A stretch of DNA of 33,198 nt from positions 1-33,198 of the forward strand of contig DAOMFH010000002.1 of assembly GCA_035429705.1 (NCBI GenBank), written 5' to 3'. This DNA is from Actinomycetota bacterium. GTDB lineage: Bacteria > Actinomycetota > Actinomycetes > S36-B12 > UBA10799. Both the position numbers and the translations under genes were made by a program. Under the pieces are notes generated by a model. That model saw only the letters and a program-made list of their open reading frames with translations, did not search any database and was not told the DNA's origin. Positions 4,165 to 25,838 of the stretch are shown in pieces; position 1 is the first letter of the stretch; the number at the start of each line of letters is the position of its first letter.

Positions 4165-4767
4165 GTGATCGCCATCGTGGACGTGGGACTCGGGAACGTG
4201 GCGTCCGTGCGGAACATGCTCGACCGGCTCGGCTATGCGGCCGATTGCCGCGGTTTGCCAGACGGGCTCACCGAAACCGATCGATACATCCTCCCGGGGG
4301 TGGGGGCGTACGACGAAGGGGTTCGCCGACTGTCCGAGACCGGTTGGTACGACCACCTGCGTTCCCTACCCGAGTCCACCCATGTCCTGGGCATCTGTCT
4401 GGGGATGCAGCTCCTCGGCACCTCCAGCGAGGAGGGTGAACTGGATGGCCTCCAAAGGGTCCCGGCCCACTTCGAGCGCTTCAACGTGGCCCCGTTGCGT
4501 GTGCCGCACATGGGCTGGAACCTGGTGCAACCCGTCAACGCGGACCCGATCTTCGATCCTGAACTGCCGGAGTGGCGCTACTACTTCACGCACTCATTCC
4601 GGGCTGTGTGCGACGATGCTTCGGTGGAGATCGGACGCACGCGCTACAACACCGACTTCACATCCGCCTACCGAAGCGGGAACACCCGCGGCGTCCAGTT
4701 CCACCCCGAGAAGAGCCACCGCTTCGGGATGTCACTTCTCTCGCGCTGGGCGGAACTGCCTTGCTGA
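4165..4767 (+). CDS. hisH: Imidazole glycerol phosphate synthase HisH-type glutamine amidotransferase, glycan-locus paralogue (WbuY-like)
   Basis: 200-aa ORF. It opens IAIVDVGLGNVASV, has the nucleophile motif LGICLGMQLL and the His/Glu motif VQFHPEKS. It lies among glycan genes, not in a his operon. Confidence 0.85.
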   Translation: MIAIVDVGLGNVASVRNMLDRLGYAADCRGLPDGLTETDRYILPGVGAYDEGVRRLSETGWYDHLRSLPESTHVLGICLGMQLLGTSSEEGELDGLQRVPAHFERFNVAPLRVPHMGWNLVQPVNADPIFDPELPEWRYYFTHSFRAVCDDASVEIGRTRYNTDFTSAYRSGNTRGVQFHPEKSHRFGMSLLSRWAELPC

Positions 4768-11472: not shown

Positions 11473-12545
11473 GCACCGGCCTTCGCCACGTCGTTCACGG
11501 CCTCGACGATGGTGTCGAGGTCCGCCTCGCTCAAGGCCGGGTGGACGGGAAGCGAGATCACTTCCCGGGCTGCCCTCGCCGTCTCAGGAAGGTCCAGGGT
11601 GAGCCCGAACGACGGCAGCGCGTGCACAGGGGTCGGGTAGTAGACGCCCGAGCCGACGCCGAGTTCCGCCAAAGCCGCCACGAACGCGTCCCGGTCATGT
11701 CCGGGGACCCTGACCGTGTACTGGTGGTAGACGTGCACCGCCCCCTCGGCGACGCTGGGAGTGACGACACCGACGAGGTTGGCCGTCAGGAATGCGGCAT
11801 TCGCCTGGCGCTGGGCCGTCCAGCCGGGCAGTTTGCCCAGTTGGACTCGTCCTATCGCGGCGTGGATGTCAGTCATTCGGGTGTTGAAACCGACCACCTC
11901 GTTGCGGTATCGAACCTCCATGCCCTGGTTGCGCAGCAGGCGAACCATGCGGGCGGTGTCCGGAGCCGCAGCGGAGACCATCCCTCCCTCTCCGGACGTC
12001 ATGTTCTTCGTCGGGTAGAAACTGAAACACCCGGCATCGCCGAGTGCGCCGACCGGGGTTCCGTGCAGCGACGCGGCGTGGGCCTGGGCGGCGTCCTCTA
12101 CGACGAGGAGATCGTGGGCCTCCGCGATCCGCGCAATCCTGTCCATCGCGGCTGGATGGCCGTAGAGGTGTACCGGCATGATGGCCGTACTCCGGGGGGT
12201 GATCGCGGCCTCGATGGCTTCCGGGGAGATGCAGAAAGAGTCCGCCTCGATGTCGACGAAGACCGGGAGCGCCCCCGTCAGTGCCACGGCGTTGGCAGTC
12301 GCCGCGAACGTGAAGGAGGGGACGATCACCTCGTCGCCTGGGCCGATACCCAGCGCGATCAGGGCCATGTGCAGCGCGGAGGTTCCGGAGTTGACCGCGA
12401 CGCACTGCCGGTCGTCGACGATGCCTGCGAACTCCTGCTCGAAGGCCGCCACCTGCGGGCCTTGTGCAAGGCCACCGGATGCGAGGACGGCATCGACCGC
12501 CACCCTCTCCTCATCCCCGATCAGTGGCCTGGCCGCTGGGATCAT
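11469..12545 (-). CDS. DegT-family aminotransferase (WbpE-like by context)
   Basis: The sequence MIPAARPLIGDEERVAVDAVLASGGLAQGP.. is a typical DegT start, with GDEVIVPSFTFAATANA and the PLP-lysine block CFSFYPTKNMTSGEGGMV. The start is ATG 12545 or GTG 12551 (GAGGAG 7 nt upstream). The track start at 12662 would overlap the acetyltransferase by about 110 nt. Confidence 0.85.
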   Translation of the reverse strand: MIPAARPLIGDEERVAVDAVLASGGLAQGPQVAAFEQEFAGIVDDRQCVAVNSGTSALHMALIALGIGPGDEVIVPSFTFAATANAVALTGALPVFVDIEADSFCISPEAIEAAITPRSTAIMPVHLYGHPAAMDRIARIAEAHDLLVVEDAAQAHAASLHGTPVGALGDAGCFSFYPTKNMTSGEGGMVSAAAPDTARMVRLLRNQGMEVRYRNEVVGFNTRMTDIHAAIGRVQLGKLPGWTAQRQANAAFLTANLVGVVTPSVAEGAVHVYHQYTVRVPGHDRDAFVAALAELGVGSGVYYPTPVHALPSFGLTLDLPETARAAREVISLPVHPALSEADLDTIVEAVNDVAKAGA

Positions 12546-12552
12546 CTGCACG

Positions 12553-13152
12553 TCAGCACTCCTCAAGTTGGCTGTCATGAACCTGTCGGTAGTGGGATCC
12601 CGTCGCCGGGCACACCCAGATGCTGGGATCGCCGGCCGTCTGCTCGAGCGGCAGACCAGCACGGCCGACCCAGCCGACCCGGCGAGCGGGAACGCCCACG
12701 ACCAGGGCGTAATCCGGGACGTCGCGGATCACGGTCGCTCCCGCCGCCACGAGCGCCCAGCGGCCGATCGTGACCGGAGCGACGCACACGGAACGGGCAC
12801 CGATCGAGGCACCCTCGCACACGGTGACGCCTTCAGGCTCCCAGTCATGGCCCGACTTCAGGGAGCCGTCCGGGTTGACCGAACGCGGGAAGTGGTCATT
12901 GGTGAAGACTACGGCCGGGCCGATGAACGCGCCTTGCTCGACACGCGCAGGTTCGTAGACCAAGGCGTAGTTCTGGATCTTGACGTTGCGGCCGATCTGC
13001 ACGCCGCTGCCGATGTACGCACCGCGGCCGACGATGCAGTTCTCGCCGAGAGCCGCGCCCTCGCGCACTTGTGCGAGATGCCAGATCGAGGTTCCATCGC
13101 CGACTCCTGCGTCGTCGGCCACGTCGGCTGACGGGGCGATCCAGACTGACAT
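12553..13152 (-). CDS. Left-handed beta-helix N-acetyltransferase (WbpD/WlbB-like, 3-amino sugar N-acetylase)
   Basis: 199-aa ORF with hexapeptide repeats (..IGRGAYIGSGVQIGRNVKIQNYALVYE..VEQGAFIGPAVVFTNDHFPRS..). The C-terminal ..VGVPARRVGWVGRAG....WVCPATGSHY is typical of WlbB-type enzymes. Confidence 0.85.
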   Translation of the reverse strand: MSVWIAPSADVADDAGVGDGTSIWHLAQVREGAALGENCIVGRGAYIGSGVQIGRNVKIQNYALVYEPARVEQGAFIGPAVVFTNDHFPRSVNPDGSLKSGHDWEPEGVTVCEGASIGARSVCVAPVTIGRWALVAAGATVIRDVPDYALVVGVPARRVGWVGRAGLPLEQTAGDPSIWVCPATGSHYRQVHDSQLEEC

Positions 13153-13319: not shown

Positions 13320-14552
13320 TCAGCACCTCGGTGTTGCGTCCCGCATGGCGTCCAGCATCTGGTCGGCAAGCACCTCTTGCCGCATGTGCTGCTCAACATA
13401 TGTGCGCCCATTCTGCCCCCAGGTCGCCCTCTCCTCCGCCGAGGACTGCGCCATCTGGCGCAACGCTTCGATCAGGGACTCCGGGACGTTCGGGTCCGCC
13501 GCCAGGCCACACGCCGCGTCAGCGACCGGGGAATTGGCGGCCCCTATGTTCTCGAGCAACGGCAGACCGGCAGCGAGGTAGTCGTAGATCTTGTTGAACG
13601 AGACCCCGAAGCGGTACAGCGGCGATGGCCGAGCGCCCGCATAGGCGAAGTCAGCCAGGCGAAGGGCCTGCGTCACCTCCGATCGAGGGACCGGGTCGAA
13701 GAAGCGGACATTGGGACAGTCCGCGCAGCGAGCCTGCAGGTCTTCCTTCAGCAGGCCCGAGCCCACGAGAGCGAATGCGATCCCCAGCTGTTCAGCCGAG
13801 CCGGCACTGTCCAGGAGATCCTCCAGGGCGTTCGCCGTTCCGTGGGCGCCAGCGTAGACCAGCACCACGGGATACGACCTGCGCAACTCCGCCACCCCGT
13901 CTTGGACGGACCGCAGTGCCGCGGACGGGCTCGGAGTCGCAGTCCGCGGGCTGAATTCCACGCCGTTCGGAATCCAGATCCAACGACCTTCGGCGAGCCC
14001 CCGCGACCGCATATACCCCTCGGTCTTCGGGAGAAGCGATACGACCAGGTCTGCATTCAGGTAAGCGAAGCGTTCCTCCCGCTGCATGAGGCGAATCGCG
14101 GGGTGCTCCTGCGATACGCCACCCAGGAGGATCGGCGTGAGCGGCCACAGATCGTGCACCTCATAGACGAATCTCGCACCGGTCGCGCGCGCCAAACGCA
14201 AGGCAGGACGAACGTCGAACGGATGGGTCGAGGATGCGATCACAACGTCCGGTTCGAAGCGCGCGAGCCGTGGGTGACTCCAGCCCAGAACGGCACCGAA
14301 AGACAGCAGGTTGGCAAAGCGAGCCGGGCCGTTGGCCTTGTAGGGGGTGGTCGGGAGGACCTGGAACCGAACACCCTCGTACAGTCTGCGGCCCCGGTCG
14401 ATTTTCGCGGTTGTGCGCAGATGTGATCGGTCACCACAGACGACCAGGACCTCGTGGCCGCGCTCCTGCCAGCGTCTGGCCATCCAATGGGGACGGTACT
14501 CCATACCCAGGCTGGGGCCGCCGGCGTACTGGTTGATCAGCAGAATCCTCAC
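13320..14552 (-). CDS. GT4-family glycosyltransferase (second WbuB-like)
   Basis: 410-aa ORF. The opening RILLINQYAGGPSLGMEYRPHWMARRWQERGHEV has the same architecture as the 1561-2790 product. Its GTG start shares 1 nt with the stop of the upstream phosphoglycosyl transferase. Confidence 0.8.
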   Translation of the reverse strand: MRILLINQYAGGPSLGMEYRPHWMARRWQERGHEVLVVCGDRSHLRTTAKIDRGRRLYEGVRFQVLPTTPYKANGPARFANLLSFGAVLGWSHPRLARFEPDVVIASSTHPFDVRPALRLARATGARFVYEVHDLWPLTPILLGGVSQEHPAIRLMQREERFAYLNADLVVSLLPKTEGYMRSRGLAEGRWIWIPNGVEFSPRTATPSPSAALRSVQDGVAELRRSYPVVLVYAGAHGTANALEDLLDSAGSAEQLGIAFALVGSGLLKEDLQARCADCPNVRFFDPVPRSEVTQALRLADFAYAGARPSPLYRFGVSFNKIYDYLAAGLPLLENIGAANSPVADAACGLAADPNVPESLIEALRQMAQSSAEERATWGQNGRTYVEQHMRQEVLADQMLDAMRDATPRC

Positions 14553-15166
14553 TAGCCGAACACCACTTCACGCAGTGTCCGGACGATAACCATGAGGTCG
14601 CCCGTCAGAGTCCTGGTCTGGGCGTAACCGGCGTAGGCCTTCACCTTCTGGGGCAGCAACACGAGCCGGTAGTAGTCCTCGGGCTCGGATGACGACGCCA
14701 GCAGACTCTCCTCGCGTCGCAGCGAAAGCGTCATCGGGTCAGTGATTCCCGGGCGGATCGACAGCACCAACTCACGCAGATCCGGATCCCACTGATCCAC
14801 GAAGCACCGTAACTCGGGACGTGGACCGACAAGACTCATGTCTCCCTTCAACACATTGAAGAGCTGGGGCAACTCGTCGATCTTGGAGGATCGCAGCCGC
14901 GCGCCCAAGGGCGTCACCCGAACATCCGTGGACGAAGTGACGGAAGGTCCGTTGCCACCTGTCCGCATGGTCCGGAACTTGTAGATGATGAAGGGTTTGC
15001 CGTGACGTCCTATTCGCTGCTGCCGGAAGATGGCCGGACCACGGCTCTCTCTGCGAACCAGGACCGCGATGATACCCATCGGCGGCGCGAGCACAACCAA
15101 GCCGACAGCCGACACCACCACGTCCAAGGTGCGCCGAACCGCCGCCGAGGCTTTGGAGTCCGTCAC
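14552..15166 (-). CDS. Small monotopic phosphoglycosyl transferase (bacterial sugar transferase family, PglC-like; initiating enzyme)
   Basis: The sequence ..RRTLDVVVSAVGLVVLAPPMGIIAVLVRRESRGPAIFRQQRIGRHGKPFIIYKFRTM....DELPQLFNVLKGDMSLVGPRP.. carries the family motifs. GTG 15166 overlaps the upstream stop (GTGA). The 298-aa track ORF is an extension into the upstream gene. Confidence 0.85.
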   Translation of the reverse strand: MTDSKASAAVRRTLDVVVSAVGLVVLAPPMGIIAVLVRRESRGPAIFRQQRIGRHGKPFIIYKFRTMRTGGNGPSVTSSTDVRVTPLGARLRSSKIDELPQLFNVLKGDMSLVGPRPELRCFVDQWDPDLRELVLSIRPGITDPMTLSLRREESLLASSSEPEDYYRLVLLPQKVKAYAGYAQTRTLTGDLMVIVRTLREVVFG

Positions 15167-16314
15167 CCGAGAAGAGCCCTCACACTCTCCACGACTCGCA
15201 CGACCTGGGCGTCGGTCAACTTGCTCGATATCGGCAGGCTGACCGCCCGCGGGGCTTCGGCGACGGCAACCGGAACGGTAGCCTCCGGGCTGGCGACGAA
15301 GTCCCGCCAGTAGGTGTGCTGGTGCAGCGGAATGAAATGAACGCTGGTGCCGACCCCCCTGTCGCACATACCCGCGATGAATTCGTCGCGATGCAACCGG
15401 CCATCGGCCTGCAGACGGATGACGAAGAGGTGCCAGGCATGCAGGCACGGTTCCTGCGCGCGCTGGGGCAACTGCACGGGCAGATCCGCGAGCTCCGCTG
15501 CGTAGAAGTCGGCGATCTGTTGACGGCGCTCACGCATCCTGAAGGCCCGAGCCAACTGAACGCGGCCCATGGCTGCCGCCATGTCCGGCATGTTGTACTT
15601 GAATCCCGGCGCAACGACGTCGTAAGACCATGCCGGCTGAGATGACGTGTACCGGTGGAATGCATCGCGGTCGATTCCATGCAACCGCATGAGCCGGCTC
15701 CGCTCGGCGATCTCCGGACTGCGGGTGGTGATCATGCCGCCCTCGCCGGTCGTGACCGGCTTAGTGGCGTAGAAACTGAATACTGCAGCATCGCTGTATG
15801 CCCCACTACCCACGAACCCGGCAGTACCCACTGCTGGCAGCGCGTGGGCTGCGTCCTCCAGGACTGCGATGGGGCGGTCAGCGATCACGTCGCGCAGCGC
15901 GACCAGATCCATGGCGAGCCCGGCGAAGTGAACCGGGATCACCGCCTTGGTGAGGTGTGTGATGGCATCAGCCGTGGCCTGGAGATCCATGTTCAGGCTG
16001 ACCTGGTCCACGTCCACGATCACCGGGTTGGCACCCAGATAGCGAACCACCTCAGCCGTGGCGGTGAAGGTCCAGTCGGGCACGATGACTTCGTCGCCCG
16101 GGCCGACACCTAGTGCCTCCAGCACCAAATGCAGGCCCGCGGTTCCCGAGTTGACGGCGATGGCCTCCGCCCCACCGCCGACGGTCTCGACGAACTCACG
16201 CTCGAATTCGCGCATCAGGGGCCCTGAGGTCACCCATCCGGAGCGGATGGCCCCAGCGACCGCCTCTGCTTCCTCATCCCCCACATCCGGCAGCGCGAAC
16301 GGGATGTGCTCCAT
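15163..16314 (-). CDS. DegT-family aminotransferase (PglE/ArnB-like, likely 4-aminotransferase)
   Basis: It opens MEHIPFALPDVGDEEAEAVAGAIRSGWVTSGP.., with GDEVIVPDWTFTATAE and the PLP-lysine block VFSFYATKPVTTGEGGMI. The start is ambiguous between ATG 16314 and GTG 16353. Confidence 0.85.
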   Translation of the reverse strand: MEHIPFALPDVGDEEAEAVAGAIRSGWVTSGPLMREFEREFVETVGGGAEAIAVNSGTAGLHLVLEALGVGPGDEVIVPDWTFTATAEVVRYLGANPVIVDVDQVSLNMDLQATADAITHLTKAVIPVHFAGLAMDLVALRDVIADRPIAVLEDAAHALPAVGTAGFVGSGAYSDAAVFSFYATKPVTTGEGGMITTRSPEIAERSRLMRLHGIDRDAFHRYTSSQPAWSYDVVAPGFKYNMPDMAAAMGRVQLARAFRMRERRQQIADFYAAELADLPVQLPQRAQEPCLHAWHLFVIRLQADGRLHRDEFIAGMCDRGVGTSVHFIPLHQHTYWRDFVASPEATVPVAVAEAPRAVSLPISSKLTDAQVVRVVESVRALLG

Positions 16315-16359
16315 CTCTTCAGGTCGCCCAGACTCCCCGCTCGCCACCCCCAAAGGCTA

Positions 16360-16650: not shown

Positions 16651-17289
16651 TCATTCGATCGCGACGATCCTTCTGGCCGGGTTGCCCAGCACCTTGGTAC
16701 CCGCCTGCACGTCGGTCAATGCGACGCTGCCGGCACCCAGGTACGCGTCATCACCCACGTTCTTGCCGGGCACGACAGTGACATGACTGGCCAAGAACAC
16801 GCGTTTGCCTATCGTCACTCCGCCGGTGATATCGCAGTAGGAAGAAATCGTCGTGTAGTCCCCGACAGATGCGTCATGCCCGATCTGCGAGTTCAGCAAC
16901 GTCACGAAATCGCCCACGACGGCGTTGACGGTGATCACGGACTGCGGGAAGGCGATCAGCCCCTCCCCCAGACTGTTCAGGTCGCCGATGGTGGCGGTCG
17001 GATGAATGATGGCTTCGAACACAGCACCGCGGGCCTTCAATGAGGCTACGACTCGCTCCTTGGTGCGGCAATCCGCAATCGCACACGCAAAGACCTCATC
17101 GGCCGCTGGAATCCAGTCACGCACACTGCCGATAACCCCGTAGTCGCAGTCCAGGCCGTCGAGTTTGCTGGGGTTGTCATCCAGGAACCCCTTGATGCGC
17201 CAGGTCTCCTCCACCTCATTGACGTCCTTGGCCCACTGCAACAACTCCCTTCCTAGCCCACCTGCGCCAACGAACAACAGGTTCTTCAC
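16651..17289 (-). CDS. NeuD/PglD-family sugar N-acetyltransferase (hexapeptide)
   Basis: 212-aa ORF. It has an N-terminal Rossmann-like LLFVGAGGLGRELLQW and C-terminal hexapeptide repeats ending ..GAGSVALTDVQAGTKVLGNPARRI. GAAGGA lies 9 nt before the GTG start. Confidence 0.8.
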   Translation of the reverse strand: MKNLLFVGAGGLGRELLQWAKDVNEVEETWRIKGFLDDNPSKLDGLDCDYGVIGSVRDWIPAADEVFACAIADCRTKERVVASLKARGAVFEAIIHPTATIGDLNSLGEGLIAFPQSVITVNAVVGDFVTLLNSQIGHDASVGDYTTISSYCDITGGVTIGKRVFLASHVTVVPGKNVGDDAYLGAGSVALTDVQAGTKVLGNPARRIVAIE

Positions 17290-17337: not shown

Positions 17338-19176
17338 TCAGCGAGCCCCAGTCGAGTCCACCGCTCCAAGTGCCGAGAGTATACCCAGAGAGGCCGCAAA
17401 CAAGTAGACCATTGATTCCGTCTCGCTACACCGCCCGGAGGTCCTGCTGCGTTCGGCCCTCCGGCGCACGCCAGACTCGTCCATGAGCTCATCCGGACAC
17501 CTCGAGATGAGGTCAATCAGTGCGCCGAAGGCGTCATCATCCCGCAGCAGGAAACTGGCATCCACGCGGAAGGCGGCCTTCTCGAAATCCAGTGCCCGGA
17601 GTCTGGGATTCCTGTCGGCCAGGCGCGCAAGCAGTTGCCGCACGGGCAGTTTGCCCGTGTCAATCCCGATCAGAGTGCTGGGGTCCTGGTCCAATGCCCA
17701 ACTCGCCACCGGCGCCGCCAGATAGGGCGGACGAAGTTCGACCCCCTCCTCCATCCATGCGTGATCCCCCTGCACCGTCAGCAAGTAGGCTCCCAGCAGT
17801 CCCTGTAGATCGGCGGCTCGGCGCGACTCCAGCGCCGCCACGACGTCGCCCCCCTCGTCCGGCGGTTCGGGAACCCGCAGCAATTGGTCCCTCAGCGGCT
17901 GCCGGAACAGGTCCGCGACCGGCTTGAGCAACGCGGCGCGCATGGTGACGGTTTTGCCCGCCAGGCCGATGGTCCCGCGCCAGTAGGCACGCATCCAGGT
18001 GCTGCTGCGATCAGCACCGATCTCCGGTATGCCGAACTGCCCCCAGTCCAAGGTGTCAATCGGACCGAATAGCCCTTCCCGCGCCGCGATCACCCGATAC
18101 GAATCGTACCCACAGAAGAGTTCATCGGAACCTTCACCCGAGATGACGCCTCGGACTCCCTGCTTCCTGGCGAACTGAGCCAGCGCCGTCATCCCGATCG
18201 GACCCAGACGTACCAGGGGGACTCGCCGTGTGGAGACGTAGTCGACGAAGACGTCCATGACCACGTCAGGGGTCAATCGCAGTTGGCTGAGATCCATGTC
18301 GAGGGCCTCGGCCACCATCTGTTGTCTGGCTCGCACCGTTTCGTCACCGTCAAGAAAGAGACCCAGCCCGAGTCGCTGACCGAATTCCGCCGCCAGTGCG
18401 CCGACGACAGTCGAATCGATACCGCCGCTGAGCAAGCAGGCCACCCGGCCGGTCGACCTCAGCCGGACCTCGACGGACTTGCGAAGTGCCGATTCCAGAC
18501 TGGCGACATCGGGCTGTTCGTACCGTCCCTCTGTCCAGGAGGGCACCCAGCGTCCGCCGGAATCGATCCTGTCGTTGACGATGGTCAGCGCACATCCCGG
18601 TGCCACCTGATGAATCCCGGTGAACGGTGATAGGTCGCCCTGGGGAGCCCATTCCTCAAGGATTGATGAGAGGCCCGGCAGAGACAGGTTCCATCGCCCG
18701 CCGACCGCCTGCATCAGCGCCTCGATGCCAGAGGCAACGGCCACGCCCCCGTCGAACTCACAGTAGTAGAGGGGGCAGATACCGAAGCGATCACGAACAG
18801 CCAGAACGGGCCCATCCGTCGTCGGCCTGACCAGTGCCGCGAACTGACCATCGATTCTGGTCAGGAAACGGGGACCCTCGCGCGCGAGTCCGGCGACGAG
18901 GATGCCGACCTCGGATCCGTCGGGCCAGTCAAGGTACTGGCGCAGTTCGTCCAGGTTGTAGATCTCGCCGTTGAAGACCGCTGCGGCGCCCCCCTGACCG
19001 ACATAGGGCTGGGTGGATGCTCCCTCCTCCCAGTGGGTCAGTCGCGATGCGACGAGGGAGAGGCCCGGCTCCTGCCAGGCGCCGGTCTCGTCAGGGCCTC
19101 GTCTCGCCAGGGCATTTGCCACGCCCTGCGGGTTCGCGATGCCCGCGTGCCCGACCACACCGGCAAACCCGCACAC
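17338..19176 (-). CDS. asnB: Asparagine synthetase B-family glutamine-hydrolysing amidotransferase
   Basis: 612-aa ORF. It has the N-terminal nucleophile M-CGFAGVVG, the PP-loop ACLLSGGIDSTVVGALA and the motif GEGSDELFCGYDSY. The start is GTG-TGC. Confidence 0.85.
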   Translation of the reverse strand: MCGFAGVVGHAGIANPQGVANALARRGPDETGAWQEPGLSLVASRLTHWEEGASTQPYVGQGGAAAVFNGEIYNLDELRQYLDWPDGSEVGILVAGLAREGPRFLTRIDGQFAALVRPTTDGPVLAVRDRFGICPLYYCEFDGGVAVASGIEALMQAVGGRWNLSLPGLSSILEEWAPQGDLSPFTGIHQVAPGCALTIVNDRIDSGGRWVPSWTEGRYEQPDVASLESALRKSVEVRLRSTGRVACLLSGGIDSTVVGALAAEFGQRLGLGLFLDGDETVRARQQMVAEALDMDLSQLRLTPDVVMDVFVDYVSTRRVPLVRLGPIGMTALAQFARKQGVRGVISGEGSDELFCGYDSYRVIAAREGLFGPIDTLDWGQFGIPEIGADRSSTWMRAYWRGTIGLAGKTVTMRAALLKPVADLFRQPLRDQLLRVPEPPDEGGDVVAALESRRAADLQGLLGAYLLTVQGDHAWMEEGVELRPPYLAAPVASWALDQDPSTLIGIDTGKLPVRQLLARLADRNPRLRALDFEKAAFRVDASFLLRDDDAFGALIDLISRCPDELMDESGVRRRAERSRTSGRCSETESMVYLFAASLGILSALGAVDSTGAR

Positions 19177-19177
19177 G

Positions 19178-19420
19178 TCAGAGGCTTTGGTAGAAGGCGT
19201 GGATGGATGCCAGACTGCGGAAGTCCGACGACCCCGCCCGCATCATCGCGTCCTCGTTCCCAGTCATCTCCACCAAGATGTCCAGAATCGCCACAATCGA
19301 CAGTGAATCGAGCATCCCGGCCTGCGCCAGATTCTCAGAGTCCCGCACGACTGTGTCCTCGTGCGCATAGAAGACCCGCTCCAAGAGCTCGTCCTCCACA
19401 TCACTCCACATAGCCTTCAT
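19178..19420 (-). CDS. Acyl/peptidyl carrier protein (DltC-like)
   Basis: 80-aa ORF with the phosphopantetheine-site motif AGMLDSLSIVAILDIL (Ser39, nt 19304-19306). A strong GGAGGAG SD lies upstream of ATG 19420, and only a 1-nt gap separates it from the asnB-like start. Confidence 0.65.
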   Translation of the reverse strand: MKAMWSDVEDELLERVFYAHEDTVVRDSENLAQAGMLDSLSIVAILDILVEMTGNEDAMMRAGSSDFRSLASIHAFYQSL

Positions 19421-19499
19421 GCCATCCCTCTCCTCCAGGCCACAGAGGCTGAAGTCCTCTTCCTACTCGGGCGTGTGCCCTATCCCGTGCTTCGGCACG

Positions 19500-20438
19500 T
19501 CAACCGCGAAACCGTAGGCTCCGCGTGTGCTGGTACCGAAGCGTGGCAGCGAGCCCGGTTCCAACCTGGCGCAGAGCGTCCACACTCCAACCAGGGCACT
19601 GGGCCGCGAGCCCGGACAGATCCGCCGCATCCAGTTCACCAGATTCCGCCCTTGCCGCCAATTCGGTCAGGACTGCAGCGGGCAGCGCGTAGTAGTAGTC
19701 ACTCTGGGTCTGGGCAAGCTGGTACGTGTCAGTTGTGGGAGGACGCGCGATGATCTCACGCGGAACCCCCACGGCTTCGGCGAGTTCGTAGACCTGCGAC
19801 TTCGACATTCCTCCGATCGGGCAGATGTCAGCCGCGTCATCACCGTATTTCACCACAAACCCAGAGTCCAACTCGTCCCCGTTAGAAGCTCCCACCACCG
19901 CCAGATTCCTGGCCTCGGCTTCAGCATACGCGAAGAGCATCCGCGTCCTCTGCTTCCGGTTCTGGTATGCGATGAGCCTGCGCAAGTCGTCCACTGAAAG
20001 CCGCAGCACCCGCTCAGGCTGACCACGGCGAGGGCCGATCACAGCCTGATACACGAGAGCCCCGAGTTGGCGCGTCAGACCCTGCGAGATGTTGATGGCG
20101 TAGGCATGAGTGGCGGAGTCGTACTCCGGTGCGTACTTGCGGATCAACTCGTCGATCTCGACCGATGGCTGTTGCGACTCGATCGTGGCAGCGATGGACC
20201 GCTCCACAACTTGCACTCCCGCGGCATCAGCAGCGCTCAATACGAACGCGTGAGTCTCCGGGCTGGTCGCCGTGTCGGGCAGATAGAGGGCAGTCACATT
20301 CTCGGGCCCCAGCGCGCGCGCGCAGAGCATGAGCACGGTGGAGGAGTCGACTCCTCCGGAGAGTTGGACAAGAGCCCCCTTCTTGCCCAGGCGATGGATT
20401 TCGGAAGCGATCCAGTCGCTGACGCCGCCGCCGGTCAT
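19500..20438 (-). CDS. NAD+ synthetase (NadE)-like PP-loop ATP pyrophosphatase paralogue
   Basis: 312-aa ORF. It has the PP-loop ALVQLSGGVDSSTVLML and the NadE-type block VVGASNGDELDSGFVVKYGDDAADICPIGGMSKSQVYELAEAVGVP. An ATGA overlap joins it to the upstream ligase. Confidence 0.75.
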   Translation of the reverse strand: MTGGGVSDWIASEIHRLGKKGALVQLSGGVDSSTVLMLCARALGPENVTALYLPDTATSPETHAFVLSAADAAGVQVVERSIAATIESQQPSVEIDELIRKYAPEYDSATHAYAINISQGLTRQLGALVYQAVIGPRRGQPERVLRLSVDDLRRLIAYQNRKQRTRMLFAYAEAEARNLAVVGASNGDELDSGFVVKYGDDAADICPIGGMSKSQVYELAEAVGVPREIIARPPTTDTYQLAQTQSDYYYALPAAVLTELAARAESGELDAADLSGLAAQCPGWSVDALRQVGTGLAATLRYQHTRSLRFRG

Positions 20439-21676
20439 TTGCCACTCTCCCCCAGGCTCAGTTGGTCAACGACGCGCAAGCGTACCATACTCGCCAAAGC
20501 GCCGATCTCCTCATGTAATAGTCTGCGCACTTCACCGAGGTTGCCCACCGGCTGGCTCCCTTCCACGATCTCAACGACAACGATGGAGTCGCCAGTAACC
20601 CTCGCAGGCTGACCAGCTGCCTTGACGACCAGGGGGTGGAAGTGCGCGTCGATGAGCCGCTCGATCGCTTGCAGGTCGACCCTCGTTCCGGCGACGTTCA
20701 GCCACCTGTCCGCCCGCCCATGGTGGATGATCTCCCCACTGTCGAGTCTCGTGCCCAGGTCCCCGGTATGGATGAAGTCCGCGGCCGTGGGCCCGTCAGT
20801 GACCTCACGGTAAGGGGGCTGCAGTATGCACCGCATGGCGTACTCACTGCGTGCCAGAAGCTCTCGCGGCTGCGGGCCGCCAGGGTCGCCGGCGAGTTCG
20901 AGTTCGACACCGGGAATCGGGAAGCCGATGTTGCCCTCCCGGAATCCGGCGAGGGGTCCGCTCCACATGGACAGCCGAGGACCCATCTCGGCCTGGCCGT
21001 ACATGTTGTCCAACCGCGCTTCCGGGAATGCGCCCTGCAGGCTCTGCGCAGACGTCGCCGACAAGCGGCCGCCGGCCACGATCAGGCGCGCGACACTGTC
21101 TGGCTCCAGACCTGCCGAGAGGATCAAGGGGGTGTGCTGCGGCAGCATGTAGATCGCCAGGGGTTCCCCCGAACCCTTGGTCCCGGTGTCGAGACCGGAC
21201 AGCCCCCAATCCGCATCCAGATACTTGACTGCTACGCCGGCCAGGTTGTGACTGTGCAGAATGCTCAATCCATACGCATAGCGAACCGGCGGCAGGGCCA
21301 GGTACAGGCAGTCCTGGTTCAATCGGAGTGCTGAGGCGATGGCGGCGGCATGGCGCTCGACCGTCGACCGATCGTAGACGACGCATTTGGGATTGCCCGT
21401 GGAACCGGACGTGAAGAAGCCGAGGATCGGTCCATCAGCAGCGCCGCCCGGATCAGGCACATCCAGGACGTGCGACGCCGCAGCGAGGTCGGTGACGAGC
21501 GTCGGGCGGTTGGACAACGTCCCGAGGAGGGCTGTGATCCTGTCCAGCCCGTCGAAAGGCTCGCGCGGGCGGATCAGAGCGGACATCCCCTGCTCCACGG
21601 CAGTGAGGTACTGCTCTATGTGGGTCTGCGCAAGCAAGTCCTGATGTTGGATTCTGTTCATCTCTGCTTGCACCAC
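20435..21676 (-). CDS. Short ANL-superfamily adenylate-forming enzyme (acyl/aminoacyl-AMP ligase)
   Basis: 413-aa ORF. It has FFTSGSTGNPKCV at residues 87-99, the motifs NMYGQAEMG and HTGDLG, the hinge motif GRADRWLNVAGTRV and a terminal ..GESGK lysine. The start is GTG 21676 or ATG 21661. Confidence 0.8.
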   Translation of the reverse strand: MVQAEMNRIQHQDLLAQTHIEQYLTAVEQGMSALIRPREPFDGLDRITALLGTLSNRPTLVTDLAAASHVLDVPDPGGAADGPILGFFTSGSTGNPKCVVYDRSTVERHAAAIASALRLNQDCLYLALPPVRYAYGLSILHSHNLAGVAVKYLDADWGLSGLDTGTKGSGEPLAIYMLPQHTPLILSAGLEPDSVARLIVAGGRLSATSAQSLQGAFPEARLDNMYGQAEMGPRLSMWSGPLAGFREGNIGFPIPGVELELAGDPGGPQPRELLARSEYAMRCILQPPYREVTDGPTAADFIHTGDLGTRLDSGEIIHHGRADRWLNVAGTRVDLQAIERLIDAHFHPLVVKAAGQPARVTGDSIVVVEIVEGSQPVGNLGEVRRLLHEEIGALASMVRLRVVDQLSLGESGK

Positions 21677-22033
21677 TCAGCGCAGCACCCCACGAAACTC
21701 CACCCATCCCTACGTGGGCCCCGCCACACACACCCGGGCGTGAGAATCCGCGAGCAGTCCGCGGCGCACGCATGGGTGCTGGTGCAGGGCCACCTACCAA
21801 TGACATGAAGAGGATAGCGTCTTTGCTGTGCCAGGTCCTGGCTCGGCGGACCACCATTCACATGACCCGTCGACCTGGTTCCAGTTCAACCGACCCGCAC
21901 CCCCGGTGCCGGGTTCACCAGACGAGATCCGCGTCAATCGAGCCCGTCACCACCCCGACGTAGGCCAAACTCGCGCCGCCACCCGCCAGAGGCTCAACCT
22001 CTACGATCATGTACGCGAGAGGAGGGTGCCGCT

Positions 22034-23308
22034 GTGGACCTGAAGCAGTACATCGCCGCCTCGGCGCCGATGTTCGACGATCCGCCCGCAGTCTCCCGCG
22101 AGGCCTTCCAGGCATGTGCAGCACTGCTCGCCGCCGGGGAACCGTCCGGCCTGGAGCGACTGGCCGCGTACCTGGGCTGGAGGCGCGAGGAGGTCACCGC
22201 GCTCGCCGAGCAGGGCCGCGCCTTCCGAAGCACCGCTCCGCCGACTCTGCGTGCCCTCATCGCCGCCGGCCACACCGAACAGGTGGAGACGTACGCGCTG
22301 TTCATGGTCCAGGTGACCCGCTTGGCGTGCCTGCAGTTCGCCGCCGGCGACGCCGGGGCCAGCCGCGCGGCCAGTGCCATAGCGGCCACCGTCACCCGCA
22401 CCGCACCGATCAGCAACACCCGGCTGGAACCCGCAGCGCCGGATCCCCAACCCACCGCGCCGGATCCCAAACCCACCGAACAGAGCCTCCGCCCCGACAT
22501 GACGGCCGTCGGCAGGGCTCTCGACGACCTCGAACGCCTCGTCGGGCTCGAGGAGGCCAAGCGGGAGATCAACCAGCAGGTGCAGCTGATCCGGATCGCC
22601 CAGTTGCGCGAGACCGCGGGGCTGCGCAACCCCACCGTCAGCCGGCACCTCGTGTTCGTCGGCAACCCGGGCACCGGCAAGACCACCGTCGCGCGCATCG
22701 TCGGCCGCATCTACACGGCACTGGGCGTCGTGAGGAACGGCCAACTCGTGGAGACCGATGCATCCGGGTTGGTGGCCGGCTACGTGGGGCAGACCGCGCT
22801 GAAGACCCAGGAGCAGATCGACAAAGCGCTCGGCGGCATCCTGTTCGTCGACGAGGCCTACGGGCTGACGCGCAACGACTTCGGGGTCGAGGCCGTTGAC
22901 ACCCTCGTCAAGGCGATGGAGGACCACCGGCACGACTTGGTGGTCATCGTGGCCGGCTACCCGGACAACATGCGCGAGTTCATCTCCAGCAACCCCGGGC
23001 TCGAATCGCGATTCCCCGTAACCGTCGCCTTCGCGGACTACTCCCCCGATGAACTGCTGCTCATCCTGCAACGCATGTGCGCCGACGCCGACTACCAACT
23101 GGCCGAGGACGCCCAGGTCCCGGTTCGCCAAGTGCTCGAGGGCTTGACCGGCGAGTCCGACTTCGGCAATGCCCGCACCGTCCGCAACCTCTTCGAGGCC
23201 GCCGTCCGTGAGCACGCATGGCGGTTGCGTGACGTCACCGAGGTGAGCGTGGAGCAGATGCGCACTCTCGGTGCCGATGATTTCGCGGCGGCGGTTGCGC
23301 CCGAATGA
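22034..23308 (+). CDS. AAA+ ATPase, CbbX/SpoVK/EccA-type, with an unassigned about 190-aa N-terminal region
   Basis: 424-aa ORF. It has Walker A VFVGNPGTGKTTVARI, Walker B ILFVDEAYGL, the block VVIVAGYPDNMREFISSNPGLESRF and a sensor-2-like GNARTVRNLFE. GAGAGGAGGG lies 8 nt before the GTG start. Confidence 0.85.
   Translation: MDLKQYIAASAPMFDDPPAVSREAFQACAALLAAGEPSGLERLAAYLGWRREEVTALAEQGRAFRSTAPPTLRALIAAGHTEQVETYALFMVQVTRLACLQFAAGDAGASRAASAIAATVTRTAPISNTRLEPAAPDPQPTAPDPKPTEQSLRPDMTAVGRALDDLERLVGLEEAKREINQQVQLIRIAQLRETAGLRNPTVSRHLVFVGNPGTGKTTVARIVGRIYTALGVVRNGQLVETDASGLVAGYVGQTALKTQEQIDKALGGILFVDEAYGLTRNDFGVEAVDTLVKAMEDHRHDLVVIVAGYPDNMREFISSNPGLESRFPVTVAFADYSPDELLLILQRMCADADYQLAEDAQVPVRQVLEGLTGESDFGNARTVRNLFEAAVREHAWRLRDVTEVSVEQMRTLGADDFAAAVAPE
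22436..22477 (+). repeat. 21-bp tandem duplication (2 copies, 1 mismatch) inside the AAA+ ATPase linker
   Basis: GCGCCGGATCCCCAACCCACC (22436-22456) is followed directly by GCGCCGGATCCCAAACCCACC (22457-22477). The two copies encode APDPQPT/APDPKPT. Confidence 0.85.
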
Positions 23309-23332
23309 CCTGCGCCCGGGCATGATTGGGCA

Positions 23333-23986
23333 ATGGACGCCACGACCATCCGCCGCGCCGTGGTCATGGCAGTCGGGCTGGCCATCACCTCCGCGGGGCT
23401 GACCCTGGTCTTTCTCGGCATGCGCGCCGTGATGGACGTCGGCGGCTACTGCGCCTCGGGCGGGCCGTACGTCATCGCGCAGGAGTGCCCGCAGGGCACG
23501 GCTGCACTGATTCCGCTGGGGATCATCGGTGGACTGATCGGGCTGGCGATGTATGCGGTGACCTCCGCGAAACTGCCCGGCCCCCGGCTGACGCTGCTGG
23601 CATGGTCGGCGCTGTTCCTCAGTCTCGGGTGGAACTTCTGGGAGTACGGCCTCAACCCGCCGGACGGGTCCGCGGGGCTCGTCTGGGGGTGGATCATCTG
23701 CGGGGTCATGTTTGTCATCATGGGCGCCTTCCCCCTGCTGGGACTGTTCAGCCGCGACATCGCCAAGCGGTTGCTGTGGGCAGATGCACCGTCGGGACAA
23801 CCAGTCGGTCCCAGCCAAGTACGGGCCGCGATCATCCCCCGCCGCGTGTCACCGTCCTCCCTTCCGGCGTCGCAGCAGGACTCCGTCACCGGGGCACTGG
23901 AGAGACTCGCCGCACTACATCAGGCCGGAGCATTGACCGACGAGGAATTCACGGCAGCCAAACAGCGGATTCTGGAGGATCAGTGA
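23333..23986 (+). CDS. Four-TM membrane protein with a C-terminal SHOCT domain
   Basis: 217-aa ORF with four hydrophobic segments. The C-terminal LERLAALHQAGALTDEEFTAAKQRIL matches the SHOCT (short C-terminal) motif. Confidence 0.75.
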   Translation: MDATTIRRAVVMAVGLAITSAGLTLVFLGMRAVMDVGGYCASGGPYVIAQECPQGTAALIPLGIIGGLIGLAMYAVTSAKLPGPRLTLLAWSALFLSLGWNFWEYGLNPPDGSAGLVWGWIICGVMFVIMGAFPLLGLFSRDIAKRLLWADAPSGQPVGPSQVRAAIIPRRVSPSSLPASQQDSVTGALERLAALHQAGALTDEEFTAAKQRILEDQ

Positions 23987-24090
23987 GCAACTCCAGCACC
24001 ACGAAGGCGGCATTCGCGATCCTGCAACTCATCGCGATCCTCGTGGGCGTTGCGCTCGGTGTTCAGCTGTTCCAGTTGTTCTCCGGCTGA
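23983..24090 (+). CDS. 35-aa single-TM micropeptide (hypothetical), translationally coupled to the SHOCT gene
   Basis: Its GTG start overlaps the upstream TGA (GTGA at 23983-23986). It encodes MSNSSTTKAAFAILQLIAILVGVALGVQLFQLFSG. 30 of 35 third codon positions are G/C, which is coding-like. It falls below the ORF-track size cut-off in its own right. Confidence 0.5.
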   Translation: MSNSSTTKAAFAILQLIAILVGVALGVQLFQLFSG

Positions 24091-24105
24091 CCGCGGGCCG
24101 GTCAG
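24085..24105. terminator. GC-rich hairpin between convergent genes (possible bidirectional terminator)
   Basis: GCTGACCG (24085-24092) and CGGTCAGC (24098-24105) form a perfect 8-bp stem with a 5-nt loop. The hairpin lies in the 22-nt gap between the micropeptide stop and the oxidoreductase stop. There is no clear U-tract. Confidence 0.35.
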
Positions 24106-24112
24106 CAGCGGC

Positions 24113-25651
24113 TCAGATCCGTGCGTTGATGAGCTGGTACCCGGAGTCCTCCCGCGTGCCGCCCATCCCGTCGCCGTACCTGCGGTAGTCGTCGACCCAC
24201 TCCAGGCTGCGGATGTACTTGACCATCTTATAGCCGACGTAGGACTCGATGCGGATCCGCAGCGGCGCACCGAAGGTGTAGGGCAACGGCTTGTCGTTCA
24301 TCTCCCAGGCGAAGATGGACTCGTCCTCCCGGCACGCGTCGATCGGGATGCACGAGTAGAACGGCTCCAGCGGCCGGTGGTCGTGCATGTGCTGCGCCAG
24401 GCCGAAGGACGTCACCAGCAGGTACTTGGCACCCGCGGGCGGCGGACCGGACAACGCCATCAGGTCCATCACCTTCGGGCCGGTCCACTTGGCGATCCCG
24501 GTCCAGCCCTGCATACAGGCGTGCAGGGAGATCTGGGTCTGCTGCGGCAGCGCCTTGATCTGCTCGAACGCAACCATGACCGTGTTGGTCCCCTTGATCT
24601 CCAGCACGTAGTCCGCGAAGTCGTCCTGCGCCAACCGGGTCCACTCCGGGGACTCCTGCGGGGTGGGGTAACGGCCGTTGGTCCAGTGGTACGGCGAGAT
24701 GTCCTTCTCGCTGTAGGTGCCGAGCCGGCGGGTGCGCGACTGCATCTTGTTGATCGTGTGCTTTCGCAGCGGTTCGGTCAGGTGGTTGAGGAAGATCTGG
24801 GTCCTGCGCTTGTCGACGAGACTGAGGTAACTGATTGCGATCCACGCCACGACCGACACCAGGATGACGATCAGCATCACGGTGGTCGCCTGCGCCACGC
24901 GGGCCGGGTCGTATCCCCCGAAGACCATGTTCGTGACGTTGTGCGGCCGGTGCACGAGGAACACCAGGGACACGTGCATCACGATGAAGAAGGTCAGGAA
25001 AGCCATCCCCAGGAAGTGGATGGAGCGAGCCGCCTGACGGCCGCCGAACAGTTTCGGCAACCACGGGTACTGGCCGATCACGGCCGGCGACATGCAGGGG
25101 CCGGTGAGCATCATCAGCGGTGCGGCCACGAAGACGACCACGAAGTACATCAGCGACTGCAGAGGATCGTACGGGTTGAAGTGTTCGATGTCGGGAATCC
25201 CGAATCCCGCGTAGATCTTCAGCGACTCCCATGCCTGCGGGAAGACGTCCCCCGACGTCGGGACGATCCGCCTCCAGTTGCCGGTCGCGAACAACAGGGT
25301 CACGTAGACCAGCCCGTTCAACACCCACAGGGCCGTGATCAGGCCGTGCCAATGGCGGCCCAGCCCCGGGTTGCGCCCGCCGGGCAGGGTCAGCCAGCTC
25401 GGCGGCTCCGACTCGTCGTCGTGGGCTGTGTAGGCGCCCTCCTCCGGTGGCACCACCCGCTTGGTGAATTTGATCCACTCGGTGCCCGGTCCGCAGTCGT
25501 TGCGCCAGTAGAACCGGGGATGCGTCGCGATGATCTGCCAGCCCGAGCGGATCAGCAGAACGATCAGGAAGAAGTTGATGAGATGTGTTGCGCGGAGCCA
25601 CAAAGGGAACCCGAACTCCGCCGTGGCGAGCAGCGTCATACTTGTCACCAT
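24113..25651 (-). CDS. Fused membrane cytochrome-b-like domain + molybdopterin-dependent oxidoreductase (sulfite oxidase/MsrP-YedY fold)
   Basis: 512-aa ORF. The N-terminal approx 270 aa is polytopic with conserved His in the TM helices (RATHLINFF, RHWHGLITALW, RSIHFLGMAF, MHVSLVFLVH). The C-terminal approx 200 aa carries Oxidored_molyb-like blocks (..ISLHACMQGWTGIAKWTG.., ..FGAPLRIRIESYVGYKMVKYIRSLE..). Confidence 0.8.
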   Translation of the reverse strand: MVTSMTLLATAEFGFPLWLRATHLINFFLIVLLIRSGWQIIATHPRFYWRNDCGPGTEWIKFTKRVVPPEEGAYTAHDDESEPPSWLTLPGGRNPGLGRHWHGLITALWVLNGLVYVTLLFATGNWRRIVPTSGDVFPQAWESLKIYAGFGIPDIEHFNPYDPLQSLMYFVVVFVAAPLMMLTGPCMSPAVIGQYPWLPKLFGGRQAARSIHFLGMAFLTFFIVMHVSLVFLVHRPHNVTNMVFGGYDPARVAQATTVMLIVILVSVVAWIAISYLSLVDKRRTQIFLNHLTEPLRKHTINKMQSRTRRLGTYSEKDISPYHWTNGRYPTPQESPEWTRLAQDDFADYVLEIKGTNTVMVAFEQIKALPQQTQISLHACMQGWTGIAKWTGPKVMDLMALSGPPPAGAKYLLVTSFGLAQHMHDHRPLEPFYSCIPIDACREDESIFAWEMNDKPLPYTFGAPLRIRIESYVGYKMVKYIRSLEWVDDYRRYGDGMGGTREDSGYQLINARI

Positions 25652-25838
25652 AGCCCTTGTGAAAATTCGCCGGACGGCGGGTTGGGAGGCGGTTACCGGA
25701 CACTGAGTTGATCATGATATGGAGGCTTCGGATCTCAGCGGCGGTAGGACCAGCCGGTGGCTCGAACGGCGCAGTCGTGAGCCTGCGCGACCAGCCGATT
25801 CCGGTTCACGGATGCAGCACACCGGCCCCGGAGTCCGG

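Follow-up and report, generated by a model that had tools for sequence, protein, structure and literature searches.

What might a short adenylate-forming ligase, a relative of NAD synthetase, a small carrier protein and a relative of asparagine synthetase make together at the head of a glycan operon? The question is raised by a four-gene cassette on the minus strand of a 33,198-nucleotide stretch of DNA from an Actinomycetota bacterium (contig DAOMFH010000002.1, positions 1 to 33,198), which we call the window. The four genes encode a ligase of the ANL superfamily, a NadE-like PP-loop ATP pyrophosphatase, a stand-alone carrier and an AsnB-type glutamine amidotransferase. A first-pass annotation had suggested that an acid tethered to the carrier is amidated there and then installed on the glycan, and the computational analysis described here partly supports that interpretation. 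We consider, with a probability of about one half, that the four genes form a self-contained module that uses its own carrier protein to make an activated acyl group bearing an amide. Its product would most likely be an unusual amide-bearing acyl decoration of surface polysaccharides. This reading is built on the identities of the genes, their intact active sites, their conservation, their recurrence in polysaccharide loci and a set of natural fusions, together with the predicted fold of the carrier.

The four genes and their packing

All four minus-strand open reading frames (ORFs) are present and packed as first described (Table 1). The ligase and NadE-like genes overlap in an ATGA at 20435-20438, where '...GGC AAA TGA' is read over 'ATG ACC', and the NadE-like gene is translationally coupled to the ligase gene through this overlap. 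A single nucleotide at 19177 separates the carrier and AsnB genes ('...CTC TGA c GTG TGC GGG'), and AsnB then begins M-C-G-F. The motifs on which the first reading relied were also recovered, namely TSGSTGNPK at residues 89-97, GRADRWLNVAGTRV and a terminal GESGK in the ligase, SGGVDS in the NadE-like protein, LDSLS in the 80-aa product and Cys2 in AsnB. The proportion of G + C at third codon positions (GC3) is of the coding type in all four ORFs, in a sequence of 65% GC; for the 80-aa carrier ORF the values at the three codon positions are 0.59/0.36/0.80. All four family assignments hold, that of the carrier by profile and fold rather than by Pfam.

The cassette heads a 13-gene co-directional run with Wzy at its end. 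It stands at the head because the long ORF upstream on the same strand (603 aa, 22007-23818) is a high-GC antisense shadow. We had considered this ORF as a fifth cassette gene, since a 584-aa gene overlaps the ligase gene in Mobilicoccus, and rejected it: no similarity was found, its composition is of the antisense type, and a real AAA ATPase gene lies opposite it on the plus strand. That divergent gene (22034-23308) is the true upstream neighbor of the ligase gene. The operon promoter is presumed to lie between the two on the basis of their divergent arrangement. Scans of the window and of the operon head found no sigma-70 consensus site, terminator, Rfam family or tRNA.

Conservation of the cassette as a unit

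Close relatives of the cassette were collected as 15 loci in which the ligase is at least 38% identical to that of the window; they include a Nanopelagicales metagenome-assembled genome, Mobilicoccus, Kineosphaera, Austwickia, Dermatophilus, Piscicoccus, Nigerium and Ilumatobacteraceae. All 15 share one gene order, namely ligase, NadE-like, carrier and AsnB, as far as the contigs reach. This survey bears out the proposal that the cassette is a unit, and the four-gene arrangement is more than chance. The best conserved of the four is the NadE-like gene, at 50-73% identity. None of the other glycan genes of the window is conserved with the cassette across the close loci. In almost every related locus, genes for UDP-sugar dehydrogenase and for WbpB/E/D-like enzymes are absent from the 10 kb on either side of the cassette; only L004 has a dehydrogenase-like stretch nearby. 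Most of the cassettes sit in polysaccharide loci, among Wza/Wzc/WbaP, GT2, GT4, Wzy and rml genes. The glycan context claimed for the cassette is thus seen in most of the close loci and fails in three of them (L013, L015 and L085).

More distant relatives in Mycobacterium, with ligases of 32-35% identity, have the ligase and carrier genes only, between a ketosynthase and a thioesterase. Because these relatives retain just the two genes, we take the ligase-carrier pair to be the older core; its mycobacterial use is apparently a different one, of lipid or polyketide type. In the loci concerned (L016-L019, from Mycobacterium and Mycolicibacterium; for example L016, 8601-12342), the thioesterase is of the 4HBT type and the NadE-like and AsnB genes are lacking.

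Recurrence beyond the close relatives

The same four gene families were found together in an outgroup survey, which covered the 80 metagenome loci matching the query profile best. Of the NadE-like genes flanked by 5 kb or more on each side (n = 14), 12 had AsnB within 6 kb, 13 an ANL gene, 14 a DltC-like carrier and 11 all three. When the required flank was lowered to at least 2.5 kb on both sides (n = 26), the corresponding numbers were 18, 22, 20 and 14. In the control loci AsnB was found in 0 of 64 and the NadE-like gene likewise in 0 of 64. Gene calling and clustering of 23 larger loci gave four near-universal clusters, AsnB, NadE-like and ANL (22 loci each) and the carrier (21 loci); the commonest of the remaining clusters occurred in 5, and no fifth conserved gene was found across the module loci. 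The four genes lie next to one another and point in one direction; at least six different orders were seen, in DNA ranging from 0.32 to 0.66 in GC content. Such a variety of gene orders over this GC range argues for functional coupling rather than inherited synteny. The AsnB and NadE-like genes lie 300 bp or less apart in 26 of the 41 outgroup loci having AsnB. The outgroup hosts are typical exopolysaccharide (EPS) loci, with WbaP/PglC, Wza, Wzc, GT2, GT4, Wzy and GDP-mannose dehydratase.

Ligase and carrier

The ligase belongs to the ANL adenylate-forming superfamily, scoring 60 bits with PF00501 against a cutoff of 29.9 bits. We examined the motifs A3 (T/S-S-G-S/T-T-G-x-P-K), A5 (Y-G-x-x-E), A7 (T-G-D), the A8 hinge (G-R-x-D) and the A10 lysine; all are invariant or nearly so in 24 members of the ligase clade. 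Since a 99%-identical homolog (P0001) has 408 aa, the true start of the protein is probably the ATG five codons downstream, at 21661. Its closest sequences in the PDB are VinN and beta-aminoacyl-ACP synthetases, and its A3 motif is displaced by 64-112 residues toward the N-terminus compared with the solved relatives. An AlphaFold2 (AF2) model (pLDDT 86) has the ANL fold, with Foldseek matches at E 1e-22, and its fold neighbors are stand-alone aminoacyl-carrier ligases and adenylation domains of non-ribosomal peptide synthetases (NRPS): EntF-A, HitB, CytC1, Thr1, DltA and PigI. The affinity to PaaK/CapK suggested at first proved to be a resemblance in length only, with no PaaK/CapK model among the Pfam matches or the top 25 NCBIfam matches and none of these proteins in the top 50 Foldseek matches. 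With TIGR03098, the exosortase A-associated acyl-CoA ligase, the protein scores 54.8 bits against a cutoff of 592.35. The clade is tight, with about 54 clusters below E 1e-66 and the next matches at 1e-16, and its named members are all Actinomycetota. No exact-sequence record was found for the window ligase, P0031 or P0009. We propose that the ligase loads an organic or amino acid onto the carrier. Reading the substrate from the pocket residues was considered and set aside: the A4 region, ALPPxRYAYGLS, is more like that of acyl-CoA ligases than the Asp235-like region of NRPS, a signal too weak to use.

The 80-aa ORF has no match in Pfam or NCBIfam, including the PF00550 HMM. Its identification as a carrier protein is borne out by a predicted structure and by a profile. 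The AF2 model (pLDDT 93, pTM 0.82) has helices at residues 5-16, 22-27, 39-53 and 70-79, with Ser39 at the N-terminus of helix II. All of the top 50 Foldseek matches to this model are carrier proteins (TM 0.50-0.72), among them PltL/PigG, DltC, VinL, HitD and a glycyl carrier. When the PDB was searched with a profile of 15 orthologs, eight of the nine best matches were carrier proteins, and in the alignments shown the LDSLS serine is aligned to the attachment serine. D38-S39 is invariant in sets of 15 and 29 orthologs. By its modeled fold, then, the 80-aa ORF is a carrier protein, and Ser39 is the predicted site of phosphopantetheine attachment. HitD, VinL and PigG are the cognate carriers of HitB, VinN and PigI, which are PDB relatives of the ligase. 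No phosphopantetheinyl transferase (PPTase) gene was found among the called genes of the window.

The two putative amidating enzymes

The NadE-like protein passes the generic nadE domain model, TIGR00552, with 126.6 bits against a cutoff of 63.65. With NF002048/PRK00876, 'NAD(+) synthase', it scores 232 bits and remains below the cutoff of 313, which an outgroup module member (L096) passes with 419 bits. Homologs of the protein are labeled 'NAD(+) synthase' in public annotation. SGGVDS and a core of the form N..E...GFVVKYGD...D are conserved, and the protein aligns to solved NadE structures. It also has an insertion of about 60 aa that is absent from every solved NadE, and both the insertion region and the GFVVK segment differ from the aligned solved NAD synthetases. 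No solved structure was found for the NF002048/PRK00876 subfamily. The NadE-like proteins form a distinct clade, separated by a large gap from other NadE proteins. Relatives of the PRK00876 type (about 35-43% identity, about 330 aa) amount to some 1,100 clusters at 50% identity, at E 1e-30 or better.

Natural fusions indicate the chemistry in which this enzyme takes part. P0228 joins a full ANL ligase to a NadE-like domain, P0227 joins a NadE-like domain to an ACPS phosphopantetheinyl transferase, and P0231, present on two independent assemblies, consists of NadE-like, AMP-binding_C and PP-binding domains. The neighbors of P0231 encode a protein combining ANL and peptidyl carrier protein (PCP) domains, a GDSL acylhydrolase, two alpha/beta-hydrolases and an Sfp-type PPTase. 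Because NadE-like domains are fused naturally to ANL, PCP and PPTase domains, we tie the NadE-like enzyme to carrier-protein chemistry; these fusions lend further support to the earlier idea that the chemistry takes place on the carrier. We propose that the enzyme carries out a carboxylate-adenylating amidation or ligation on a carrier-borne substrate, and in its genomic context nicotinic acid adenine dinucleotide (NaAD) seems an unlikely substrate. One fusion locus (L170, 6207-12594) contains the ANL-PCP protein, GDSL hydrolase, two alpha/beta-hydrolases and Sfp-type PPTase and no recognizable AsnB. Three longer NadE-like matches (P0225, P0252 and P0321) were not counted as fusions, as their additional parts are Arg/Pro-rich junk and look like artifacts of frameshift or read-through.

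AsnB is a class II (Ntn) glutamine amidotransferase in which both active sites are invariant: 11 orthologs share C2, N69-G-E71, the PP-loop S250-G-G-x-D-S255 and E348/D351. It scores 214.4 bits with TIGR01536 (asparagine synthase, glutamine-hydrolysing; cutoff 267.1) and 107.8 bits with TIGR03108 (eps_aminotran_1; cutoff 816.9), and since both scores are below cutoff the protein falls in neither equivalog. TIGR03108 is the family of WbqG and PGN_1234 and the one to which WbpS has been assigned; these AsnB-type enzymes form uronamides (PMC7468200). We considered the window protein as a WbpS and rejected this on the family score and on the absence of uronic-acid genes from the surroundings of nearly all related cassettes. 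The same two results speak against an earlier suggestion that the acyl group is amide-linked to a uronic-acid carboxylate. The role we propose for AsnB is glutamine-dependent amidation of a free carboxylate.

Candidate transferases beside the module

The first-pass annotation had noted the lack of a transferase. DltB and DltD are indeed absent, but a PglD/NeuD-type acyltransferase of the left-handed beta-helix (LbH) type is encoded just downstream of AsnB (Table 1), and other folds take its place in other lineages. In all, thioester-using acyltransferases of four folds occur beside the module, lineage by lineage. The window protein scores 161.4 bits with TIGR03570 (cutoff 160.8). A PglD-type gene also follows AsnB directly in L001/L002, with 77% identity, the highest among the genes compared. 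Hexapeptide (LbH) acyltransferases lie beside the module in three outgroup loci (L098, L118 and L144), where the similarity to the window protein is weak (26-33% identity over partial alignments). We regard the PglD-type protein as the likeliest candidate in the window for transfer of the carrier-borne acyl group.

In Dermatophilaceae and in L014, a fusion of about 584 aa, made up of a pair of alpha/beta-hydrolases, is encoded directly upstream of the ligase gene or overlapping it. It has no Pfam match. Its N-terminal half weakly resembles exosortase-A-associated hydrolase 2 (3.5e-6) and its C-terminal half hydrolase 1 (5.5e-9), and the halves match the two separate hydrolases of L170 with the order kept. 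The invariant stretch is G-L-R-x-G-A, with no nucleophile, in the N-terminal half and G-V-C-A-G in the C-terminal half, the latter a cysteine nucleophile elbow like those of PHA synthases. This fusion is found in L003 (8250-10004, plus strand) and also in L007, L008, L009, L011 and L014. In L015 and L085, a gene of the arylamine N-acetyltransferase family (NAT, PF00797) follows AsnB directly in non-glycan neighborhoods, and in L089 and L121 the module is accompanied by an AT3 membrane acyltransferase.

Other genes of the window

Besides the cassette, the window contains a complete and separate acetamidino-forming system at 4165-6667 on the plus strand (Table 1), so that the locus has three or four distinct nitrogen-adding systems. 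The WbpA/WbpB/WbpE/WbpD-like set leads us to predict a 2,3-diacetamido-2,3-dideoxy-uronic acid in the glycan. Three genes of the window encode DegT-type sugar aminotransferases (155-1300, 11469-12662 and 15163-16353, all on the minus strand), against two for LbH N-acyltransferases. In L001, the closest relative, the ortholog of the first aminotransferase gene adjoins a FemAB/Acetyltransf_6-type gene, which in the present organism would fall just beyond the left end of the window. The longest ORF of the PglC-like sugar transferase (14552-15448) overlaps the third aminotransferase gene, which lies upstream of it, by 285 bp, and its Pfam match begins only at residue 105; its true start is probably further downstream.

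Table 1. Features of the window discussed in the text
Feature	Coordinates	Strand	Evidence or remark
ANL ligase, 408-413 aa	20435-21676	-	PF00501 2e-16
NadE-like PP-loop ATP pyrophosphatase, 312 aa	19500-20438	-	PF02540 8e-39
Stand-alone carrier protein (DltC / type II PCP-like), 80 aa	19178-19420	-	profile and fold
AsnB-type class II (Ntn, Cys2) glutamine amidotransferase, 612 aa	17338-19176	-	PF00733 1e-35, PF13537 1e-18
PglD/NeuD-type LbH N-acyltransferase	16651-17289	-	PF17836 and PF00132; 48 bp downstream of AsnB
Divergent intergenic region, ligase / AAA ATPase, 357 bp	21677-22033		presumed operon promoter
HisH-type glutaminase	about 4165-4767	+	GICLGMQLL...FHPEKS
AglZ/HisF2-family protein	about 4764-5528	+	316 bits, cutoff 310 bits
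WbuX N-acetyl sugar amidotransferase	5525-6667	+	301 bits, cutoff 203
WbpA/WbpB/WbpE/WbpD-like set	9167-13152	-	UDP-sugar 6-dehydrogenase, GFO/UDP-GlcNAc 3-dehydrogenase-like, DegT aminotransferase, LbH acetyltransferase

A gene at 3078-4019 on the plus strand, between a GT4 glycosyltransferase gene and the acetamidino genes, has coding-type GC3; its 313-aa product has no Pfam or NCBIfam match and no relative in any fetched locus. On the other side of the cassette, the AAA ATPase gene is followed by a gene for a SHOCT-domain protein (23333-23986, plus strand). Among three overlapping long ORFs at 24050-25715, only that at 24113-25651 on the minus strand is real (GC3 0.92), and its product is a fusion of cytochrome b561 and molybdopterin oxidoreductase.

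Proposed function and alternatives

Homology and the conserved pairing of the genes suggest a route in three steps. The short ANL ligase would adenylate a small amino or polycarboxylic acid and join it as a thioester to the phosphopantetheine arm of the carrier. The two ATP-dependent, carboxylate-adenylating PP-loop enzymes would then convert the free carboxylate or carboxylates of the tethered acid into amides, the AsnB-type enzyme with ammonia from glutamine and the NadE-type enzyme with free ammonia or another amine. Finally, a lineage-specific transferase would pass the finished group from the thioester to an acceptor. In the window, the adjacent PglD-type acyltransferase would be the likeliest transferase, and an amino sugar of the Wzx/Wzy-made glycan the likeliest acceptor.

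Several points weigh against this reading. The need for two amidating enzymes is unexplained: if the tethered acid has one free carboxylate, one of the enzymes must do something else. As the NadE-like protein passes TIGR00552, a genuine NAD synthetase activity is compatible with its sequence. The window lacks the alpha/beta-hydrolase, NAT and AT3 partners seen elsewhere, and its PglD-type gene may encode an ordinary acetyl-CoA-dependent diNAcBac (bacillosamine) acetyltransferase, because genes for a DegT aminotransferase and a PglC-like transferase come next. The three exceptional close loci are surrounded by thiolase, methylmalonyl-CoA mutase, ribosomal and replication genes, and in some hosts the acceptor may therefore be something other than a glycan. 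The outgroup survey, limited as it was to the best matches of one profile, may also over-represent one subclade.

The alternative that survives best keeps the module and changes the task of the NadE-like enzyme, which would adenylate a carboxylate and couple it to a nucleophile borne by the carrier; this could be the amino group of an aminoacyl-S-carrier or the thiol of the phosphopantetheine itself. The product would be a two-part (pseudo-dipeptide) acyl group, and AsnB alone would perform the amidation. The idea comes from P0231, in which the NadE-like domain sits where the N-terminal core of an ANL enzyme would be; this architecture, that of a carrier-loading enzyme, is found in two independent assemblies beside an ANL-PCP protein. 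Such a role would account for the coexistence of two PP-loop enzymes. An aminoacyl-carrier pair, which the ligase and carrier resemble, would supply the amine, and the insertion region and GFVVK segment are where the protein departs from solved NAD synthetases. Nevertheless, its catalytic core residues are those of ammonia-dependent NadE, the P0231 fusion is one architecture from one lineage, and we know of no NadE-type PP-loop enzyme that uses a carrier-linked nucleophile. We regard this variant as unlikely, though it is the one we take most seriously.

Two further readings separate the genes from each other or from the glycan. In the first, AsnB, perhaps with the NadE-like enzyme, would make the uronamide of the 2,3-diacetamido-uronic acid as WbpS does, while the ligase and carrier would independently supply an N-acyl group. 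The WbpA/B/E/D-like enzymes encoded in the same operon fit this proposal, as does the precedent of WbpS, WbqG and PGN_1234 (PMC7468200). It is made improbable by the TIGR03108 score of 107.8 bits against 816.9 and by the lack of uronic-acid genes near nearly all related cassettes; moreover, AsnB remains with the other three cassette genes even where the locus is not a glycan one and where the gene order is shuffled. In the second, the module would have nothing to do with glycan, making a small amide metabolite or modifying a lipid or protein, and its position in a glycan locus would be incidental. The neighborhoods of L013, L015 and L085 and the mycobacterial pair with its ketosynthase and thioesterase are what such a module would lead one to expect. 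Most close loci and the annotated outgroup loci are polysaccharide loci, however, and the window cassette heads an operon ending in Wzy, and we hold this reading to be quite improbable.

It is also conceivable that the two PP-loop enzymes act in turn on one carbon, AsnB making a carboxamide whose oxygen the NadE-like enzyme then adenylates to give an amidine or nitrile, in the manner of QueC or of WbuX/PseA-type enzymes. QueC, ArgG and GuaA are PP-loop enzymes that activate amide or ureido oxygens, and a sequence of this kind would explain the need for two enzymes; the AsnB and NadE-like genes are very frequently adjacent. Yet the NadE-like core fits the carboxylate-activating NadE and not QueC or WbuX, and we give this scheme little credence. 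Least plausible of all is the chance presence of an ordinary housekeeping NAD synthetase and asparagine synthetase, suggested by the TIGR00552 match and the public label 'NAD(+) synthase', given the translational coupling to the ligase, the presence of the NadE-like gene with the cassette in every close locus, its distinct clade, its recurrence with the same three partners in other phyla and its fusions to ANL, PCP and PPTase domains, and given that Actinobacteria typically have a large glutamine-dependent NadE. Co-occurrence, family scores, translational coupling and fusions together disfavor the uronamide, non-glycan and housekeeping explanations.

If the module acts as we propose, an amide-bearing substituent is predicted on EPS and cell-wall glycans, with effects on their charge, aggregation and antigenicity. 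Diverse bacteria would have, beside D-alanylation of the Dlt type, a distinct carrier-dependent route for tailoring surface polysaccharides. The hosts include Dermatophilaceae of activated sludge and the animal pathogen Dermatophilus congolensis. A broader and more tentative proposal, which we put at somewhat less than an even chance, is that PRK00876-type 'NAD(+) synthases' are not NAD synthetases but a new class of PP-loop adenylating enzymes that act on or load a phosphopantetheinyl carrier and, in a widespread module with ANL and AsnB enzymes, put an amide-rich acyl group not seen before on exopolysaccharides and cell-wall glycans of bacteria. A sizeable family that is routinely called NAD synthase would then be mis-assigned, with consequences for metabolic reconstructions. 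As the module has four genes and occurs in cultured strains, among them Mobilicoccus pelagius NBRC 104925, Kineosphaera limosa NBRC 100340, Gephyromycinifex aptenodytis and Dermatophilus congolensis, it is directly testable in vitro and by deletion.

Comparison with known systems

The first-pass annotation could not assign the cassette to a described pathway, and literature searches aimed at the four-family combination likewise found no description. None of the cassette proteins passes a curated equivalog other than the generic nadE domain model. The closest named analog is the exosortase A (XrtA/PEP-CTERM) set, comprising TIGR03098, TIGR03108 and TIGR03100/TIGR03101, which was defined in silico ('hypoth_equivalog'). 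It too belongs to EPS loci and joins an ANL ligase and an AsnB-type amidotransferase with two alpha/beta-hydrolases, and its models are among the best matches of the outgroup ANL and AsnB proteins. The earlier comparison with exosortase loci is partly right: related ligase, AsnB and hydrolase 1/2 families do appear, but all of them score far below the curated cutoffs: for the ligase and AsnB models, respectively, 54.8/592 and 107.8/817 bits in the window and 281-338/592 and 381-484/817 in the outgroup. The window has no exosortase gene, and to our knowledge a NadE-like enzyme is not a listed part of the exosortase A set. The main text of the PEP-CTERM paper makes no mention of the ligase or the hydrolases.

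Stand-alone aminoacyl-carrier pairs such as VinN/VinL, HitB/HitD, PigI/PigG and PltF/PltL are what the ligase and carrier match best in sequence and in fold. In the vicenistatin pathway a dicarboxylic amino acid is altered while it is bound to the carrier. Those pairs belong to polyketide synthase (PKS) or NRPS pathways, whereas the cassette lies in a polysaccharide locus, its ligase is 64-112 residues shorter at the N-terminus, and the tailoring on the carrier would be done by PP-loop amidotransferases. A carrier and a ligase also occur together inside an O-antigen locus in Vibrio cholerae O1, where rfbK-O (an ACP, an ANL-type ligase, reductases and an acetyltransferase-like protein) are thought to build a tetronate N-acyl group on an amino sugar; the tailoring there is reductive, and neither AsnB nor a NadE-like enzyme takes part.

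The two amidating enzymes have their own points of comparison. Like WbpS, WbqG and PGN_1234 (PMC7468200), the cassette AsnB is an AsnB-type amidotransferase in a locus with WbpA/B/E/D-like enzymes; unlike them, it lies outside TIGR03108 and travels with the ligase, carrier and NadE-like genes rather than with uronic-acid genes. The NadE-like protein shares the PP-loop and the conserved catalytic core with NadE, the NH3-dependent NAD+ synthetase, and differs from it in its insertion of about 60 aa, in its place in a carrier-protein module and in having relatives fused to ANL, PCP and PPTase domains.

The Dlt system (DltA, DltC, the MBOAT protein DltB, and DltD) is comparable in its logic, since there also a stand-alone ANL ligase loads a small carrier of about 80 aa in order to decorate an envelope glycopolymer. 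The model of the cassette carrier superimposes on DltC structures at a TM of about 0.6-0.72, and DltA is among the fold neighbors of the ligase. No called gene of the window has an MBOAT/DltB or DltD family match, the cassette adds two amidating enzymes, and the transferases that accompany it are of the LbH, alpha/beta-hydrolase, NAT and AT3 kinds. Carrier-protein-dependent decoration of envelope glycans, the role proposed for the cassette, is of a known kind, and there is a substantial chance that its 'NAD synthase' component has a new enzymatic role.

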